From: Clostridia bacterium
Lineage (GTDB): Bacteria > Bacillota > Clostridia > Acetivibrionales > UBA4821
DNA length: 64,000 bases
Reading direction: 5' to 3'
NCBI GenBank assembly: GCA_041687355.1
Contig: JAWLCD010000010.1
Span: forward strand, 2,371 to 66,370
Both the position numbers and the translations under genes were made by a program. Below the pieces are notes generated by a model. It searched no databases and was not told the origin of the DNA. It worked only from the letters and a program-made list of their open reading frames with translations. Shown here one piece after another: positions 6,166 through 60,084 of the stretch (its first letter is position 1; each line of letters starts with the position of its first letter).

Positions 6166-6300
6166 ATAAACAGGATTCTTGGATTCAGGTGGAGTTTTTT
6201 TCTCCATCTGAATCTTAGAAGCCGTTATCCAGGGGCGTAGCGCCGCTTAGCTCCCGCTTGAAGAAGAGGGAGTCTTAGCGGCGGTAGTCATCGGATAAAA
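6166..6300 (+). repeat. RepA copy A1 (core only, 135 nt)
   Basis: ATAAACAGGATTCTTGGATTCAGGTGGAG...CTCCATCTGAATCTTAGAAGCCGTTATCCAGG..GTAGCGCCGCTTAG..GGAGTCTTAGCGGCGGTAGTCATCGGATAAAA. Sits in the divergent gap upstream of ldcA. Confidence 0.9.
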
Positions 6301-7258: not shown

Positions 7259-7286
7259 ATATTTAGAGTATTGAACCTATACGTAT

Positions 7287-7325
7287 CGTGACGTGGCCAT
7301 TCACTTCGTTCAAGGAACTTCCCCC
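7287..7325 (+). repeat. RepE copy E2
   Basis: CGTGACGTGGCCATTCACTTCGTTCAAGGAACTTCCCCC, 5' of B2. Confidence 0.75.
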
Positions 7326-7334
7326 TTTGGTTAA

Positions 7335-7412
7335 GGGAAATGAATTAACTGGAGAATAAGTTTATGGAGAAATCTGATTTCGTAATCCTTATGAGCTGTT
7401 AATTTATTTCCC
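7335..7412 (+). repeat. RepB copy B2 (minimal form; arms joined at the GAAATC-T-GATTTC palindrome)
   Basis: GGGAAATGAATTAACTGGAGAATAAGTTTATGGAGAAATCTGATTTCGTAATCCTTATGAGCTGTTAATTTATTTCCC. Confidence 0.8.
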
Positions 7413-7424
7413 TGTATATAAGAT

Positions 7425-7464
7425 AAAGGGGCACGGCTACTCGCTCCGCTCAAGGAGCTTCCCC
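7425..7464 (+). repeat. RepE copy E3 (diverged)
   Basis: AAAGGGGCACGGCTACTCGCTCCGCTCAAGGAGCTTCCCC, 3' of B2. Confidence 0.65.
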
Positions 7465-7487
7465 ACTCTCCACAAGTCAAATAAGCA

Positions 7488-9063: not shown

Positions 9064-9307
9064 ATAAACAGGATTCTAAGATTCAGGTGGAGTTTTGGCT
9101 AATAATTTCTTGTTATCTTTGATAACTTAGAAATCATTGTCCACCTTGTGTGCTCCAACTGAATCTTAGAATCCGTTATCCAGGAACGTAGCACCGCCGT
9201 AGACTACTAGTCGCTTGATTTCGAAGAAATCTTAGCGATAGTGTCCATCTTTGATGCTCCCACTTGAATGAGAGGGGAGTCTTAGCGGTGGTAGTCATCG
9301 GATAAAA
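9064..9307 (+). repeat. RepA copy A2 (244 nt; 54-nt modules in both hairpin apices: 9101-9154 and 9203-9256)
   Basis: Same core as A1 plus two insertions. Lies between rsmD and pdp. Confidence 0.9.
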
Positions 9308-9401
9308 ATCCTACTGATTATTTTATAATACATCTGGGAAATGTCAATTGTTTTTAGTTAAACCTTAGCTTGATTATGGAGATTCCCCCTTGTGATTTGA
9401 G

Positions 9402-9473
9402 AGGAAATGAATTAACCGGCGAATAAGTTTACCTTGATTTCGCAGTCCTTATGAGCGGTTAATTTACTTTCCC
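9402..9473 (+). repeat. RepB copy B3 (minimal form)
   Basis: AGGAAATGAATTAACCGGCGAATAAGTTTACCTTGATTTCGCAGTCCTTATGAGCGGTTAATTTACTTTCCC. Confidence 0.8.
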
Positions 9474-9529
9474 TGACTGATAAGAAAAAGGAGCTAAGGG
9501 TGCAATCCTTAACTCCTTCAGCATTAATT

Positions 9530-13160: not shown

Positions 13161-13335
13161 ATAAACAGGATTCTTGGATTCAGGTGAAGTTTCTCCAACT
13201 GAATCTTAGAAGCCGTTATCCAGGAACTTATCGCCGCTTAGATTACTAGTCGCTTGATTTCAAAGAAATCTTAGCGATAGTGTCCATCTTTGATGCTCCC
13301 GAAGGGAGTCTTAGCGGCGGTAGTCATCGGACAAA
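13161..13335 (+). repeat. RepA copy A3 (175 nt; 54-nt module in hairpin 2 at 13242-13295)
   Basis: Lies between the FliK-like gene and rnhB. It contains the rnhB stop codon. Confidence 0.9.
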
Positions 13336-14863: not shown

Positions 14864-14886
14864 TCATTTATACCCCTAATTCTTCC

Positions 14887-14911
14887 GTGACAGGGGACGG
14901 TTCTCTGTCAC
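14887..14911. repeat. RepH hairpin H1 (stem GTGACAG/CTGTCAC, loop GGGACGGTTCT)
   Basis: GTGACAGGGGACGGTTCTCTGTCAC. Exact reverse complement of H2. Confidence 0.85.
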
Positions 14912-14926
14912 ATTTCTTTAACGAAC

Positions 14927-14951
14927 GTGACAGAGAACCGTCCCCTGTCAC
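14927..14951. repeat. RepH hairpin H2
   Basis: GTGACAGAGAACCGTCCCCTGTCAC. Confidence 0.85.
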
Positions 14952-14968
14952 GTTTTAAGAAAAGAAAA

Positions 14969-14997
14969 GTGAGTCAAGGAACCGTCCCCTGACTCAC
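14969..14997 (-). terminator. rplS intrinsic terminator formed by RepH hairpin H3
   Basis: GTGAGTCAAGGAACCGTCCCCTGACTCAC. On the minus-strand RNA the hairpin is followed by UUUUCUUUUCUU. It starts 8 nt after the rplS stop. Confidence 0.8.
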
Positions 14998-15004
14998 TTT
15001 TATG

Positions 15005-15349
15005 CTAATATAATACTTCTTTAACCTTTGCAGCTTTTCCAATTCTGTCACGCAGATAGTACAATCTTGCTCTTCTCACACGGCCTCGTCTAGCTACCTG
15101 AACCCCTTCAATTTTAGGCGAATGAATCAGGAATGTTCTTTCAACACCAACTCCGTAAGATAATCTCCTTACAGTGAATGTCTGGTTTACTCCCCCGCCT
15201 CTTTTTTGAATCACTGTACCCTCGAATTGCTGAATCCTTTCCCTGTTGCCTTCCTTAACCTTAACTGACACTTTTACTGTGTCACCGATATTAAACTTCG
15301 GTACCTCATTCTTTAAGTATTCACTTTCAATAGTTTTGATTATGTCCAT
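15005..15349 (-). CDS. rplS: 50S ribosomal protein L19
   Basis: 114 aa with [29 protein letters not shown]. Confidence 0.98.
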
Positions 15350-17297: not shown

Positions 17298-17484
17298 TTA
17301 TCCGATGATTACCGCCGCTAAGACTCCACTCTTCTTCATCTGGGAGACAAGCGGCGCTACGTCCCTGGATAACGGCTTCTAAGATTCAGATAAAGCACAC
17401 AAGGTGGACAATGATTTCTAAGTTATCAAAGATAACAAGAAATTATTAGCCAAAACTCCTCCTGAATCCAAGAATCCTGTTTAT
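17298..17484 (-). repeat. RepA copy A4 (187 nt, inverted orientation; 54-nt module in hairpin 1 at 17394-17447)
   Basis: Reverse complement of the RepA core. Lies between rpsP and ffh and contains the ffh stop codon. Confidence 0.9.
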
Positions 17485-32430: not shown

Positions 32431-32499
32431 AATATTAAATGGCTACTTATACTATCAATTGAATCACAATTTATTTCCTTGTACTGAATTAATCAAACA

Positions 32500-32524
32500 G
32501 TGACAAGGAACCGTCCCCTGTCAC
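32500..32524 (-). terminator. RepH hairpin H4 overlapping the nfnB stop codon (putative terminator)
   Basis: GTGACAAGGAACCGTCCCCTGTCAC. The U-tract on the minus strand is weak (UGUUUGAUU). Confidence 0.6.
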
Positions 32525-33942
32525 ACTTTCTTTGTCCTGATGTACTCATCAATAGACTTTGCTGCCTTTTTCCCGGCTCCCATGGCCTGGATAACAGTAG
32601 CTGCACCGGTTACAATATCTCCTCCGGCAAACACACCTTCCCTGCTTGTACGGCCTGTAGACTCGTCAGCCACAATGCCTCCATGCCTGGTAAGCTCTAA
32701 CCCAACGGTAGTACCAGCTATCAAAGGATTAGGGGTTGTCCCTATGGACATTATAACCGTTTCTACTTCGATTACGTGCTCAGAGCCCTGCTTTTCCACA
32801 GGCCTTCTTCTTCCGGATGCATCCGGTTCTCCGAGCTCCATTTCAATGCACTCCAGACCTTTCACCCATCCATCATCAGTCCCCAGTATTCTGACCGGGT
32901 TGGTGAGCAGTCTGAACTCAATACCTTCTTCCTTTGCATGATGCACCTCTTCCCGTCTGGCAGGCATCTCATCCTCAGACCGCCTGTATACTATATAGAC
33001 CTTATCAGCCCCCATCCTGACAGCACAGCGGGCGGCATCCATTGCAACATTTCCGCCTCCAACCACTGCAACCCTTCTACCCACCCTGACTGGTGTATCG
33101 CATTCAGGGAACCTGTAAGCTTTCATTAAATTTATTCTGGTTAGAAACTCGTTTGCAGACATCACACCGTTAAGACTTTCACCCGGTATATTCATGAATG
33201 CCGGAAGGCCTGCTCCCGAGCCAATAAAGACTGCATCATACCCCTGGGTGAATAGTTCATCAATACTCACTATTTTTCCAACAACCATGTTGGTTTTTAT
33301 TTCAACTCCCAGTTTTTTAACACTCTCAATATCTTTCTGAACAATATCCTTTGGAAGCCTAAATTCAGGGATTCCATACATCAGCACCCCTCCGGGTACA
33401 TGAAAAGCTTCAAAAACTGTAACCTTGTAACCTGACTTTGCAAGGTCTCCGGCGCATGTAATTCCTGCTGGACCGGAACCTACTACCGCTACTTTTCCCT
33501 TATTCTCATCTCGTTCCAGACTACAGGCTTCCTCTTCTACTCCCTGTGTACTGCCACCGCAGTAGTCGGCAGCAAAACGCTCAAGCCTTCCGATGCCAAC
33601 CGGTTCACCCTTCTTGCCTCTAAGACAGTACTTCTCACACTGACTCTCCTGTGGGCATACCCTGCCGCAAACAGCCGGTAAGCTGTTGGTTTCTATAATC
33701 TTTCTGTACGCTTTGTCAAACTCCTTTTTCTGTATTAGTTTTATGAACTCGGGTATTTGAACATTTACTGGACAACCTTGCACACACGGTGAGTTTTTAC
33801 ACTGCAGACAGCGCATAGCTTCCTCGACAGCCTGCTCCTGAGTGTACCCTAGTGCGACCTCTTCAAAATTCTTATTTCTAACCTCAGGCTCCTGTTCAGG
33901 GATAGGAACCTTTTTCTCCGACATATTAGGCATTTTCGTCAC
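32521..33942 (-). CDS. nfnB: NADH-dependent reduced ferredoxin:NADP+ oxidoreductase subunit B (GltD/SudA-like, 'homotetrameric glutamate synthase')
   Basis: 473 aa with two Cys clusters (CLQCKNSPCVQGCP, CGRVCPQESQCEKYC) and two GxGxxG dinucleotide folds (VVGSGPAG, VVGGGNVA). Confidence 0.88.
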   Translation of the reverse strand: MTKMPNMSEKKVPIPEQEPEVRNKNFEEVALGYTQEQAVEEAMRCLQCKNSPCVQGCPVNVQIPEFIKLIQKKEFDKAYRKIIETNSLPAVCGRVCPQESQCEKYCLRGKKGEPVGIGRLERFAADYCGGSTQGVEEEACSLERDENKGKVAVVGSGPAGITCAGDLAKSGYKVTVFEAFHVPGGVLMYGIPEFRLPKDIVQKDIESVKKLGVEIKTNMVVGKIVSIDELFTQGYDAVFIGSGAGLPAFMNIPGESLNGVMSANEFLTRINLMKAYRFPECDTPVRVGRRVAVVGGGNVAMDAARCAVRMGADKVYIVYRRSEDEMPARREEVHHAKEEGIEFRLLTNPVRILGTDDGWVKGLECIEMELGEPDASGRRRPVEKQGSEHVIEVETVIMSIGTTPNPLIAGTTVGLELTRHGGIVADESTGRTSREGVFAGGDIVTGAATVIQAMGAGKKAAKSIDEYIRTKKV

Positions 33943-34771: not shown

Positions 34772-34857
34772 TATACCAACCCCCTTCTGAAAGATTATAG
34801 TACAAGTGAGTCAAAGATTTCAATCAAAAAATTAAAGGAGTTTCCTCTTCGGGTTTA

Positions 34858-34891
34858 GGGGAAATGAATTAACTAGTGAATAAGTTTATGG
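34858..34891 (+). repeat. RepB left-arm fragment (B5)
   Basis: GGGGAAATGAATTAACTAGTGAATAAGTTTATGG. No right arm is present. It abuts the recO stop codon. Confidence 0.6.
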
Positions 34892-40998: not shown

Positions 40999-41060
40999 TG
41001 TCAAGGGGACGGGGTTGTTGACAACTTTCTAAAGTTGTTAACAACCCCGTCCCCTTGACA
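40999..41060. repeat. 62-nt near-perfect palindrome carrying the GGGGACGG motif
   Basis: TGTCAAGGGGACGGGGTTGTTGACAACTTT-CT-AAAGTTGTTAACAACCCCGTCCCCTTGACA. The arms are 30 nt with 1 mismatch. Confidence 0.85.
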
Positions 41061-49508: not shown

Positions 49509-49553
49509 AAGGTAGGGGGACGCGACCATTCGCTTCGCTCAAGGAACGTCCCC
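49509..49553 (+). repeat. RepE copy E4 (best stem GGGGACG/CGTCCCC)
   Basis: AAGGTAGGGGGACGCGACCATTCGCTTCGCTCAAGGAACGTCCCC, 5' of B4. Confidence 0.75.
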
Positions 49554-49610
49554 TTCTGATTATAGGGAAGATGAATTTAACTGGCGAATAAGTTTGCGGA
49601 GAAATCTTAG

Positions 49611-49741
49611 ATAAACAGGATTCTTGGGTTCAGGTGGAGTTTTGGCTCCAACTGAATCTTAGAAGCCGTTATCCAGGGACGTAGCGCCGCTTTTCTATAA
49701 TATTAAAGCTGGAGTCTTAGCGGCGGTAGTCATCGGATAAA
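49611..49741 (+). repeat. RepA copy A5 (core only, 131 nt), nested inside RepB copy B4
   Basis: The core sequence is flanked by the RepB left arm and RepC. Confidence 0.9.
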
Positions 49742-49753
49742 TTATGCGAAGTT

Positions 49754-49853
49754 ATGCTCAAATTTCAGGAAGAATTGACAGGACGTCAATTCTAGGAATT
49801 ATTGAGCCACGATGGCGAATTAATTCCGGTCTGAAATTTAGTATAACAAGCAT
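49754..49853 (+). repeat. RepC copy C2
   Basis: Differs from C1 at only a handful of positions. Confidence 0.75.
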
Positions 49854-49958
49854 CTAGTTTATCTTGATTTCGCAGTCCTTATGAGTTGCTAATTCATTTT
49901 CCCTAACTAATGAATTACCCCTTAATCACATTATATGACCTGCGTATCGGGAGGGTTC

Positions 49959-50137
49959 ATAAACAGGATTCTTGGATTCAGGTGGAGTTTTTGGCTCCAT
50001 CTGAATCTTAGAAGCCGTTATCCAGGGACGTAGCGCCGCTTAGACTACTAGTCGCTTGTTTTCAAAGAAATCTTAGCGATAGTGTCCATCTTTGATGCTC
50101 CCGAGGGGAGTCTTAGCGGCGGTAGTCATCGGATAAA
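49959..50137 (+). repeat. RepA copy A6 (179 nt; 54-nt module in hairpin 2 at 50044-50097)
   Basis: Core plus module. Lies just upstream (on the + strand) of the yebC terminator hairpin. Confidence 0.9.
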
Positions 50138-56782: not shown

Positions 56783-56827
56783 AAGGTAGAGGGACGCGTC
56801 ATTCGCTTCGCCCAAGAAACGTCCTCC
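56783..56827 (+). repeat. RepE copy E5
   Basis: AAGGTAGAGGGACGCGTCATTCGCTTCGCCCAAGAAACGTCCTCC, in the cbiM-cbiQ gap. Confidence 0.75.
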
Positions 56828-56837
56828 TTGATTACCA

Positions 56838-56874
56838 TGGTCACACCATTCACTTCACTCAAGGAACTTCCCCC
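56838..56874 (+). repeat. RepE copy E6
   Basis: TGGTCACACCATTCACTTCACTCAAGGAACTTCCCCC, in tandem with E5. Confidence 0.7.
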
Positions 56875-56896
56875 TTTGATTAAATGAGTCAATCTG

Positions 56897-59895: not shown

Positions 59896-60084
59896 ATAAA
59901 CAGGATTCTTAGGTTCAGGTGGAGTTTTAGGCTAATAATTTCTTGTTATCTTTGATAACTTAGAAATCATTGTCCACCTTGTGTGCTCCGACTGAATCTT
60001 AGAAGCCGTTATCCAGGGACGTAGCGCCGCTTCTCCCTCACTTGAAGAAGAGGGGAGTCTTAGCGGCGGTAGTCATCGGATAAA
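59896..60084 (+). repeat. RepA copy A7 (189 nt; 54-nt module in hairpin 1 at 59934-59987)
   Basis: Fills the whole gap between the two PP2C genes. Confidence 0.9.

Follow-up and report, generated by a model that had tools for sequence, protein, structure and literature searches.

What is the element that lies, in seven copies, among ordinary housekeeping genes in a 64,000-nucleotide (nt) stretch of DNA from a Clostridia bacterium (assembly GCA_041687355.1, contig JAWLCD010000010.1), and how did it come to be there? The element, RepA, was singled out in a preliminary description of this stretch (the window, in what follows, is the whole of its 64 kb), which wavered between a non-autonomous hairpin element and a multicopy structured RNA. 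In the reading preferred here, RepA is probably the Clostridial branch of bcr1, a family of repeats described from the Bacillus cereus group, and a small, parasitic and non-autonomous mobile DNA element moved in trans. The kinship is argued from reciprocal covariance-model matches, and the mobility from empty and filled sites in near relatives.

The seven copies were recovered where the preliminary description had placed them, by pattern searches and a covariance model alike. Two core patterns, allowing up to three mismatches, gave six and seven matches in the window and none in dinucleotide shuffles, and the model R1, run over the full 64 kb, matched exactly the seven RepA loci and no others. 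The copies are 84–100% identical to one another, and their ends are sharp; when aligned with their flanks, similarity begins abruptly at ATAAACAGG and ceases at CATCGGATAAA, and the strand that reads ATAAACAGG...CATCGGATAAA is called the top strand here. The element proper spans AT(A/C/T)AACAGG to CATCGG, with a core of 131–135 nt, and module-bearing copies reach 244 nt. Alignment of the seven copies revealed neither terminal inverted repeats nor an open reading frame (ORF), the 5′ terminus being ATAAACAGGATTC and the 3′ end, reverse-complemented, TTTATCCGATGAC; together with the folds, it upholds the earlier picture of two hairpins without either feature.

Short copies of RepA consist of a 7-nt tail followed by two adjacent hairpins, with folds of −68.7 and −50.5 kcal/mol (z −8.4 and −5.3), the former of each pair belonging to the copy at 6166. 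In the long copy at 9064 both hairpins are kept and extra branches appear (−94.2 kcal/mol, z −8.4). The spread in length, 131–244 nt, is due to a 54-nt module for which there are two places, each occupied in some copies and vacant in others. As ins1 it occupies the tip of hairpin 1 in the copies at 9064, 17298 and 59896 (positions 9099–9152 (+), 17396–17449 (−) and 59932–59985 (+), located with a module profile in nhmmer and by alignment), and as ins2 it forms a branch off hairpin 2 in the copies at 9064, 13161 and 49959 (9203–9256, 13244–13295 and 50044–50097, from the same nhmmer profile). All four combinations of presence and absence occur among the aligned copies. To judge from their global alignment score of 14, against −6.6 ± 3.9 in shuffles (0 of 2000 as high), ins1 and ins2 are homologous to each other; local alignments of the module with the arms of the RepA core gave no significant similarity. 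In the DNA examined with nhmmer, all 16 modules found lay inside RepA copies.

By eye, hairpins 1 and 2 and both modules carry a common irregularity, in which CUUG in the 5′ arm stands opposite CUUAG in the 3′ arm with a U.U mismatch. The two hairpins are otherwise unlike, having in common only this loop motif and a CAGG foot. In the fold and in the consensus structure, the host pentamer ATAAA pairs with an internal GTTAT of the element and thereby closes hairpin 2.

A structure alignment of 22 short copies from eight genomes, analyzed with RNAalifold, yielded a consensus of 37 pairs in which 97% of the cells were paired, as opposed to 29–47% in slid-partner controls. Changes on both sides were seen at 12 of the 37 pairs, versus 6.0 ± 1.1 in shuffles, none of 500 of which reached 12. 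The hairpins are kept by compensatory changes across at least eight genomes. The inner stem of hairpin 2 illustrates this: the window has GCGCCGCT/AGCGGCGG, four other metagenome-assembled genomes (MAGs) have ACAGTGCT/AGCACTGT, and Clostridium tetani has GCAAGCTC/GAGCTTAT. When the diverse metagenome copies were aligned de novo the consensus structure was poor, and when they were added to the fixed alignment the inner stem of hairpin 2 was misaligned for one subfamily.

Kinship with the bcr1 repeats

Group A of the "Bacillus cereus repeats" is reportedly the subject of studies by Okstad (2004), Klevan (2007) and Kristoffersen (2011). It comprises bcr1–bcr3, and bcr1 itself is an element of ~155 bp in the B. 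cereus group with two independent stem-loops and flanking 5-bp TTTAT repeats, which is transcribed, shows compensatory changes and occupies non-conserved positions (PMC3184786, PMC6199540, PMC6542083). Its movement has been put down to an uninvestigated "site-specific recombination-like mechanism" (PMC6199540, PMC6542083). For comparison with RepA, bcr1 sequences were taken from the supplement of PMC2267715 and from Bacillus plasmids; in the orientation of RepA they read ATAAAGTGAAACTTTAATCAgTGGGGG...CCCCCACTGATTATTAGTTGAACCAATCGGAC...GGGCAGTTGATCCCCCACCT...AGGTGGGGGTCTTACTGCCC...GGGATAAA, and individual copies run, in that same orientation, from ATAAAGTG to GGGATAAA.

The preliminary description held that RepA could not be assigned to any described family, and this claim has to be given up in view of covariance-model matches in both directions. 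The RepA model R1 matched three bcr1 copies end to end and with exact borders, at 24.6, 19.3 and 12.7 bits (E-values of 4e-4, 0.008 and 0.31 in 58.5 kb with filters off), the best background match being 16 bits. Conversely, a model built from seven bcr1 copies only, R2, matched RepA 6166–6299 end to end at 50.8 bits (E 5e-9) and the copies at 49611, 49962 and 13161 at 29.9, 29.0 and 19.4 bits. Two Clostridium plasmids also carry the element: p12124569 of C. tetani has a full-length copy of 73% identity, found by blastn against plasmids, and a plasmid of C. beijerinckii has a diverged copy, likewise found by blastn and confirmed by the RepA covariance model at 60.9 bits. On R2 these two plasmid copies score 21.9 bits (C. 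tetani) and 53.5 bits (C. beijerinckii). All of the matches between RepA and bcr1 are end-to-end and same-strand. Like bcr1, the C. beijerinckii copy has ATAAAGTGAAACTT at its start; its hairpin 1 is RepA-like, and so it bridges the two.

Distant common descent of RepA and bcr1 seems the best reading of these matches, since borders, strand and reciprocity agree. Primary sequence comparison is less telling; blastn detected no similarity between the two, and nhmmer was marginal (E 0.01–0.08 in 5 kb). The preliminary description had named a match to a known family as what would speak against a new element. The kinship with bcr1 is in part a match of this kind, and Rfam 15 gave none, either at gathering score or at E-values up to 10. 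Two families described in PMC2267715, Clot-1 of C. tetani and Clop-1 of C. perfringens, were also considered and set aside, their sequences being different from RepA.

Beyond the model scores, RepA and bcr1 are alike in many respects. Both measure ~130–160 nt, have ATAAA (the complement of TTTAT) at both ends and end 3′ in GGATAAA, and both consist of a 5′ tail and, after it, two independent hairpins maintained through compensatory change. Two motifs recur in both, CTGAWTNTTAG (hairpin 1, 3′ arm) and GTGGGRGTCTTA (hairpin 2). Both are present in many copies in spacers and operons, with a distribution that is not conserved between relatives, and neither has an ORF, terminal inverted repeats or an identified mobilizing enzyme. 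The differences are fewer. Whereas bcr1 has been described as specific to the B. cereus group, the hosts of RepA are Clostridia (Lutispora-like MAGs, C. tetani, C. beijerinckii and prophages), and RepA therefore extends the bcr1 family beyond its published limits. RepA also has the optional 54-nt module and occurs in head-to-tail arrays, neither of which was found described for bcr1 in the literature searched, and the bcr1 copies of B. anthracis show no strand preference in folding energy.

Repeats of the bcr1 type have been known for more than 20 years, but only, as was believed, from the B. cereus group. The family is greatly widened by relatives from Clostridia, including their prophages and Clostridium plasmids, and the question of what moves it becomes more tractable; a gene that tracks the elements across two bacterial classes could now be sought.

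Insertion sites and the target pentamer

RepA is mobile, has been so recently, and is polymorphic between near relatives. The evidence comes chiefly from a close relative, the MAG JAWLGL01 (MAG A), whose Ffh falls in the same 90% cluster as that of the window (at least 90% identical); orthologous loci were reached via members of this cluster. One contig of MAG A is syntenic with 7.5–19.2 kb of the window and another bears yebC, and all four orthologous sites that could be set side by side differ between the two genomes. Site sequences are written below in gene sense, which for three of the four sites is the complement of RepA.

Downstream of yebC, MAG A has a clean empty site, ..CTGACA-TTTAT-GAACTTTCCCGATACG, and the window its filled counterpart, ..TTGCAG-TTTAT-(RepA)-TTTAT-GAACCCTCCCGATACG. 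The rnhB end is empty in MAG A, CCAGGAGG-TTTGC-ATAGGG, and filled in the window, CCAGAAGA-TTTGT-(RepA)-TTTAT-ATAGG. The insertion has rewritten the C-terminus of RNase HII from F-A-stop (MAG A, L065 5960–5980) to F-V-R-stop (window, 13324–13335), with a new TGA stop inside RepA. Between pdp and rsmD, MAG A retains a 10-nt remnant, TTTATCTGATGACTA, equal to the first 10 nt of RepA and joined to the far flank; this state agrees with a deletion between GACTA and GGCTA. In the ffh–rpsP spacer, the two genomes have both flanks in common, ...TTTAGATAAA and GAGGAGGTGAATATA, and in MAG A the shared ...TTTAGATAAA is followed by a different insert of ~210 nt. More remote relatives, with Ffh 77–82% identical, have ffh–rpsP spacers of 17–114 nt without RepA, and one distant relative reads TTTAGATAG-ATAAA-ACGCC at the spot that RepA occupies. 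A further empty site is found in C. tetani, where plasmid pE88, which lacks RepA, reads AATATATT-ATAAA-TTTAAAAGG at the place of the element in p12124569.

These comparisons define a target rule. Empty sites hold a single pentamer, TTTAT or TTTGC (ATAAA or GCAAA on the RepA strand), and filled sites hold two. At rnhB the host-side pentamer is TTTGT, as against TTTGC when empty, and the other junction has the canonical TTTAT. Among the matches listed from metagenomes, the 5′ pentamer is ATCAA in 17 and ATTAA in 6 of 87 copies; in the listed copies with these 5′ ends, the 3′ pentamer is mostly ATAAA, also ACAAA and similar, and almost never the copy's own 5′ pentamer. Since the rnhB pentamers are unequal and the 5′ and 3′ pentamers of these subfamilies differ, the two pentamers are not a duplication. 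Judging from such comparisons, the 5′ pentamer is RepA's own and subfamily-specific, and the 3′ pentamer is the host target. RepA lands immediately 5′ of a pre-existing ATAAA-like pentamer of the host (3′ of TTTAT on the other strand) without duplicating it, and the insertions look as though flanked by direct repeats because the 5′ end of RepA resembles the target. In MAG A two or three units also stand head to tail, with overlaps of 4–5 nt and one pentamer in common, as new copies can land on the end of old ones. The flanks of RepA copies share nothing except the pentamer.

Several of the earlier claims can be refined accordingly. The pentamer ATAAA is indeed present at both ends, although the two are not equivalent, one being element-borne and the other a host target. 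The copies, called "strictly intergenic", are mostly so; the copy at 13161 lies inside the last codons of rnhB, and the stop codon of ffh falls in the ATAAA of the copy at 17298. A non-autonomous hairpin element was well foreseen, given that RepA is multicopy, has spread between genomes and is polymorphic between near relatives, and the suggested insertion logic of the IS200/IS605 type agrees with its placement beside a specific pentanucleotide without true duplication. The clean pairs of empty and filled sites, in which the pentamer is single and unduplicated and the 5′ pentamer belongs to the element, can be used to constrain the chemistry of movement. For the host, RepA can rewrite gene ends, as at rnhB, and adds structured spacers of 130–250 nt within conserved operons (ffh–rpsP and pdp–rsmD).

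Competing explanations and a possible mechanism

Could RepA be foremost a functional structured RNA with copies spread through the genome, either a small RNA or a cis element of transcripts that serves, for example, to bind a protein or to confer stability, its hairpins being conserved for the sake of that function? The hairpins covary strongly, and of the two strands the top one has the better fold in 31 of 34 copies of one set and 57 of 68 of another (88 of 102 together; with DNA parameters, 33 of 34 and 56 of 68), an asymmetry that is reproducible but modest. In the lineage of the window, G.U pairs exceed A.C on the top strand by 66 to 6. RepA also adjoins, co-oriented and within a recurring composite, the motif TwoAYGGAY; it occupies one conserved position after a regulator gene in nine phage contigs, sense to the genes; and bcr repeats are often transcribed in untranslated regions and operon spacers (PMC3446304). 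On the other side, mobile hairpin elements likewise show compensatory change, so covariation does not discriminate between the two readings. Rfam offers no matching family, and consensus scans found no promoter-like or terminator-like site in or at RepA. Where the neighbours are co-directional, the better-folding top strand runs antisense to them in 16 (+1) cases and sense in 5, and read-through transcripts therefore mostly carry the other strand. Sites moreover differ between near relatives, with flanks that share only the pentamer. A primarily RNA-level explanation is thus unlikely in our estimation.

A conservative site-specific recombinase of the tyrosine or serine type, inserting and removing RepA with ATAAA/TTTAT as its crossover core, would account for the fixed pentamer at both junctions, the single pentamer of empty sites and the shared pentamer of arrays; it has been proposed for bcr1 (PMC6199540, PMC6542083) and would agree with the occupation of the same ATAAA after ffh by different small elements in two related genomes. 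An identical core should, however, leave identical pentamers, and subfamilies have ATCAA or ATTAA 5′ against ATAAA 3′. No recombinase gene is linked to RepA, and an AT-rich core of 5 bp alone gives very little specificity, with ~35 unoccupied ATAAA per strand in the spacers of the window; we regard this mechanism as quite improbable. An ordinary MITE (a miniature transposable element with inverted repeats), derived by deletion from an insertion sequence with a DDE transposase and a 5-bp target duplication, would likewise be small, multicopy and located in spacers, and most RepA copies do show an apparent 5-bp direct repeat. This is very improbable, however, for an element whose termini, compared above, are not inverted repeats, whose two pentamers are not copies of each other in the subfamilies, and whose filled site at rnhB has TTTGT...TTTAT where the empty one has TTTGC. 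As for local duplication or gene conversion within this region only, seven copies of 84–100% identity in 64 kb are what it would produce, and the preliminary description had reckoned with copies limited to the region and lacking polymorphism. RepA is instead carried by at least eight other genomes, by plasmids and phages and at no fewer than 120 metagenome loci, with unrelated flanks and polymorphic sites, and next to no credence can be given to a purely local origin.

The reading of RepA as a Clostridial relative of bcr1 that is moved in trans has its own difficulties. The E-values of the covariance matches come from a shortened calibration and are rough, and in C. tetani the empty site is blurred by a further 23-nt indel to its left. 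Evidence on the strand is divided: in the well-aligned helices of the metagenome matches listed, G.U to A.C stands at ~32:26 with one near-constant G.U excluded. In the lineage of the window and the MAGs, the C-rich (lagging) strand carries the top strand of RepA at 35 of 46 sites (35:11); among the listed metagenome matches, orientation relative to GC skew is 39:45, and replication coupling is for this reason not supported as a family trait. The orientation bias and the G.U excess are lineage-level observations only, not traits of the family. The availability of pentamers was considered as a cause of the orientation bias and rejected, the spacers holding ~34 ATAAA against 37 TTTAT with RepA's own ends set aside. 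As regards the enzyme, a tblastn search with an approximate IS200 TnpA query found no match in 0.52 + 0.78 Mb of RepA flanks, which is a weak test. Hairpins 1 and 2 of RepA are unlike each other, whereas the ends of IS200/IS605 elements carry similar hairpins, and the target rule makes the 5′-TTTAT-CCGATG... strand the "active" one in the terms of IS608, which is the strand that folds worse.

How might RepA move? We infer that an enzyme not encoded in the element acts in trans on the folded single strand, much as in the HUH systems of IS200/IS605 and of the repetitive extragenic palindromes and their associated tyrosine transposases (REP/RAYT). Such an enzyme would read the irregular hairpins, each with its CUUG/CUUAG internal loop and U.U mismatch, and the pairing of GTTAT with ATAAA would select the target. 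Effects on neighbouring genes, such as new stop codons and long structured operon spacers, would then be by-products. With IS200/IS605, the palindrome-associated transposable elements (PATEs) and REP/RAYT, RepA has in common the lack of terminal inverted repeats and of target duplication and the insertion beside a fixed tetra- or pentanucleotide. It also shares with them irregular hairpins near both ends, a far end that resembles the target, and a target that can pair with an internal "guide" (GTTAT with ATAAA in RepA). It differs in that its hairpins are much longer than the ~20-nt palindromes of IS608 and REP, in having no GTAG/CGTC tag, and in that its replication-orientation bias is not general.

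A wider and more doubtful proposal, which we put forward tentatively, is that bcr1 and RepA form one old superfamily, spread over Bacilli, Clostridia, phages and plasmids, that moves by an undescribed guide–target mechanism through an unlinked enzyme. The folded strand would bring its own guide GTTAT onto the ATAAA target, and the CUUG/CUUAG (U.U) loops would be read, and cutting and joining performed, by an enzyme that the host encodes or that is unlinked in some other way. Smaller modules of hairpin form, among them the 54-nt unit, would use this route as well to enter the hairpins of larger elements.

Other systems were compared as well. BOX of Streptococcus pneumoniae, RUP, SPRITE, ERIC and Correia resemble RepA in being assembled modularly from hairpin units, some of them optional or repeated, and in being multicopy in spacers, forming stable RNA folds and being able to alter the expression of neighbours. 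They differ in having no Rfam or blastn link to RepA, and most have terminal inverted repeats or TA-type duplications, whereas the target of RepA is pentamer-specific. Integron attC sites were dismissed since the ends of RepA, ATAAAC and GTTATCC, misfit by eye the RYYYAAC/GTTRRRY core, and the copies lie among housekeeping genes. Readings as attC, REP, an ssoA-type origin or a bridge RNA were dropped for lack of the defining features.

Settings of the copies, wider distribution and neighbouring repeats

The neighbours of RepA in the window are rsmD, pdp, rnhB, a FliK-like gene, ffh, rpsP, yebC and two MASE3-SpoIIE genes. Throughout the window the + strand has a GC skew between −0.11 and −0.21, and of 58 long ORFs 48 lie on the − strand; the window is therefore taken to lie on one replichore, with the − strand leading. 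Copy 1 (6166–6299, +), a short form without the 54-nt module that scores 155 bits on R1, stands between divergent genes, a DUF4434 gene (−) and an LD-carboxypeptidase gene (+). Copy 2 (9064–9306, +) is the long form with both modules and lies between rsmD and pdp, antisense to both, with an unpaired 5′ tail at 9064–9070, hairpin 1 at ~9071–9174 and hairpin 2 at ~9176–9305. Copy 3 (13161–13335, +), of the ins2 form, is inserted in the last rnhB codons and lies upstream of the FliK-like gene, in antisense orientation. Copy 4 (17298–17484, −), of the ins1 form, is the sole inverted copy and is sense to ffh and rpsP; the TAA stop codon of ffh (17483–17481) falls inside its 5′ ATAAA. Copy 5 (49611–49741, +) is a short form within a composite repeat. 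Copy 6 (49959–50137, +), of the ins2 form, follows immediately downstream of the yebC terminator hairpin, antisense. Finally, copy 7 (59896–60084, +), of the ins1 form, fills the spacer between the two MASE3-SpoIIE genes, antisense, starting 14 nt from the start codon of one and ending 1 nt from the stop codon of the other.

Beyond the window, an exact 23-base RepA pattern was found in 43 stretches of species-representative genomes, mostly from MAG A; the other carriers are six MAGs of Clostridia or Eubacteriales, including a Lutispora sp., and one MAG labelled Deltaproteobacteria. With nhmmer, ~55 copies were counted in 43 loci of eight MAGs, dozens of them in MAG A. A looser pattern recovered at least 120 metagenome loci, mainly from fermentation and digester samples, and RepA breaks metagenome assemblies at the repeats. 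In IMG/VR, nine viral contigs carry RepA at one conserved place, sense to the phage genes (e.g., L056 5963–6097). The site lies right after a phrog_36 transcriptional regulator gene, whose stop codon falls in the ATAAA, and is followed on the other side by ~500 nt of non-coding DNA that precede structural genes; hairpin 1 is shortened and rearranged in five of these nine copies. A phage collection gave no RepA match by blastn. In a separate observation, Clostridia-type RepA and Ffh sequences (Ffh 76% identical to that of the window) were met with in MAGs labelled Deltaproteobacteria (JBLMYQ01, MAG225) and Ignavibacteriales, labels that probably reflect mis-binning or mislabelling.

Another motif, TwoAYGGAY (Rfam RF01731), occurs twice in the window, at 1178–1305 and at 49731–49878 (+), with 56.8 and 45.5 bits. 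The latter comes directly after copy 5 of RepA, and the two belong to a composite at 49510–49914, laid out as hairpin D2, D8, RepA, TwoAYGGAY and D7. The composite recurs as one unit, at 87–92% identity, at six MAG A loci and at one locus of a Lutispora MAG, and TwoAYGGAY therefore travels as part of a repeat in this lineage. It resembles RepA as a two-hairpin motif of Clostridiales, situated directly 3′ of RepA on the same strand in the composite. It differs in sequence and structure, RepA obtains no score on its model, and at 1178–1305 it stands free of RepA.

A second repeat family, RepB, forms a long hairpin, GGAAATGAATTAACYGG...CGGTTAATTTAYTTTCC. Its tip is intact at 7331–7421 and 9398–9481 and interrupted at 1073–1343 and 49563–49911, and a fragment lies at 34855–34891. 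The interrupted copies are split by a GC-rich hairpin and TwoAYGGAY, or by RepA and TwoAYGGAY, and the copy at 9398–9481 is absent from the orthologous pdp–rsmD spacer of MAG A. A third family consists of a hairpin with the core GACGCGGCCATTCGCTTCGCTCAAGGAACTTCCCC, at 1023–1075, 7281–7333, 7421–7473, 49510–49562 and 56783–56882; a related motif, reversed, lies within the MAG A insert after ffh (L052 ~1820–2040). Hairpins built on CAAGGAACCGTCCCC / GGGGACGG occur in the window at 14879–15013 (−), 32495–32529 and 40999–41060. Of these, the two-hairpin unit between ylqF and rplS scored 35 bits (E 1e-5) on the bcr1 model R2, and may be a further distant relative of bcr1 and RepA or a mere effect of hairpin shape. 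Lastly, the Clop-1 hairpin repeat of C. perfringens (PMC2267715, supplementary file 6) begins ATAAAACTTACAAACA..., and small repeats associated with ATAAA may be common in low-GC Firmicutes.

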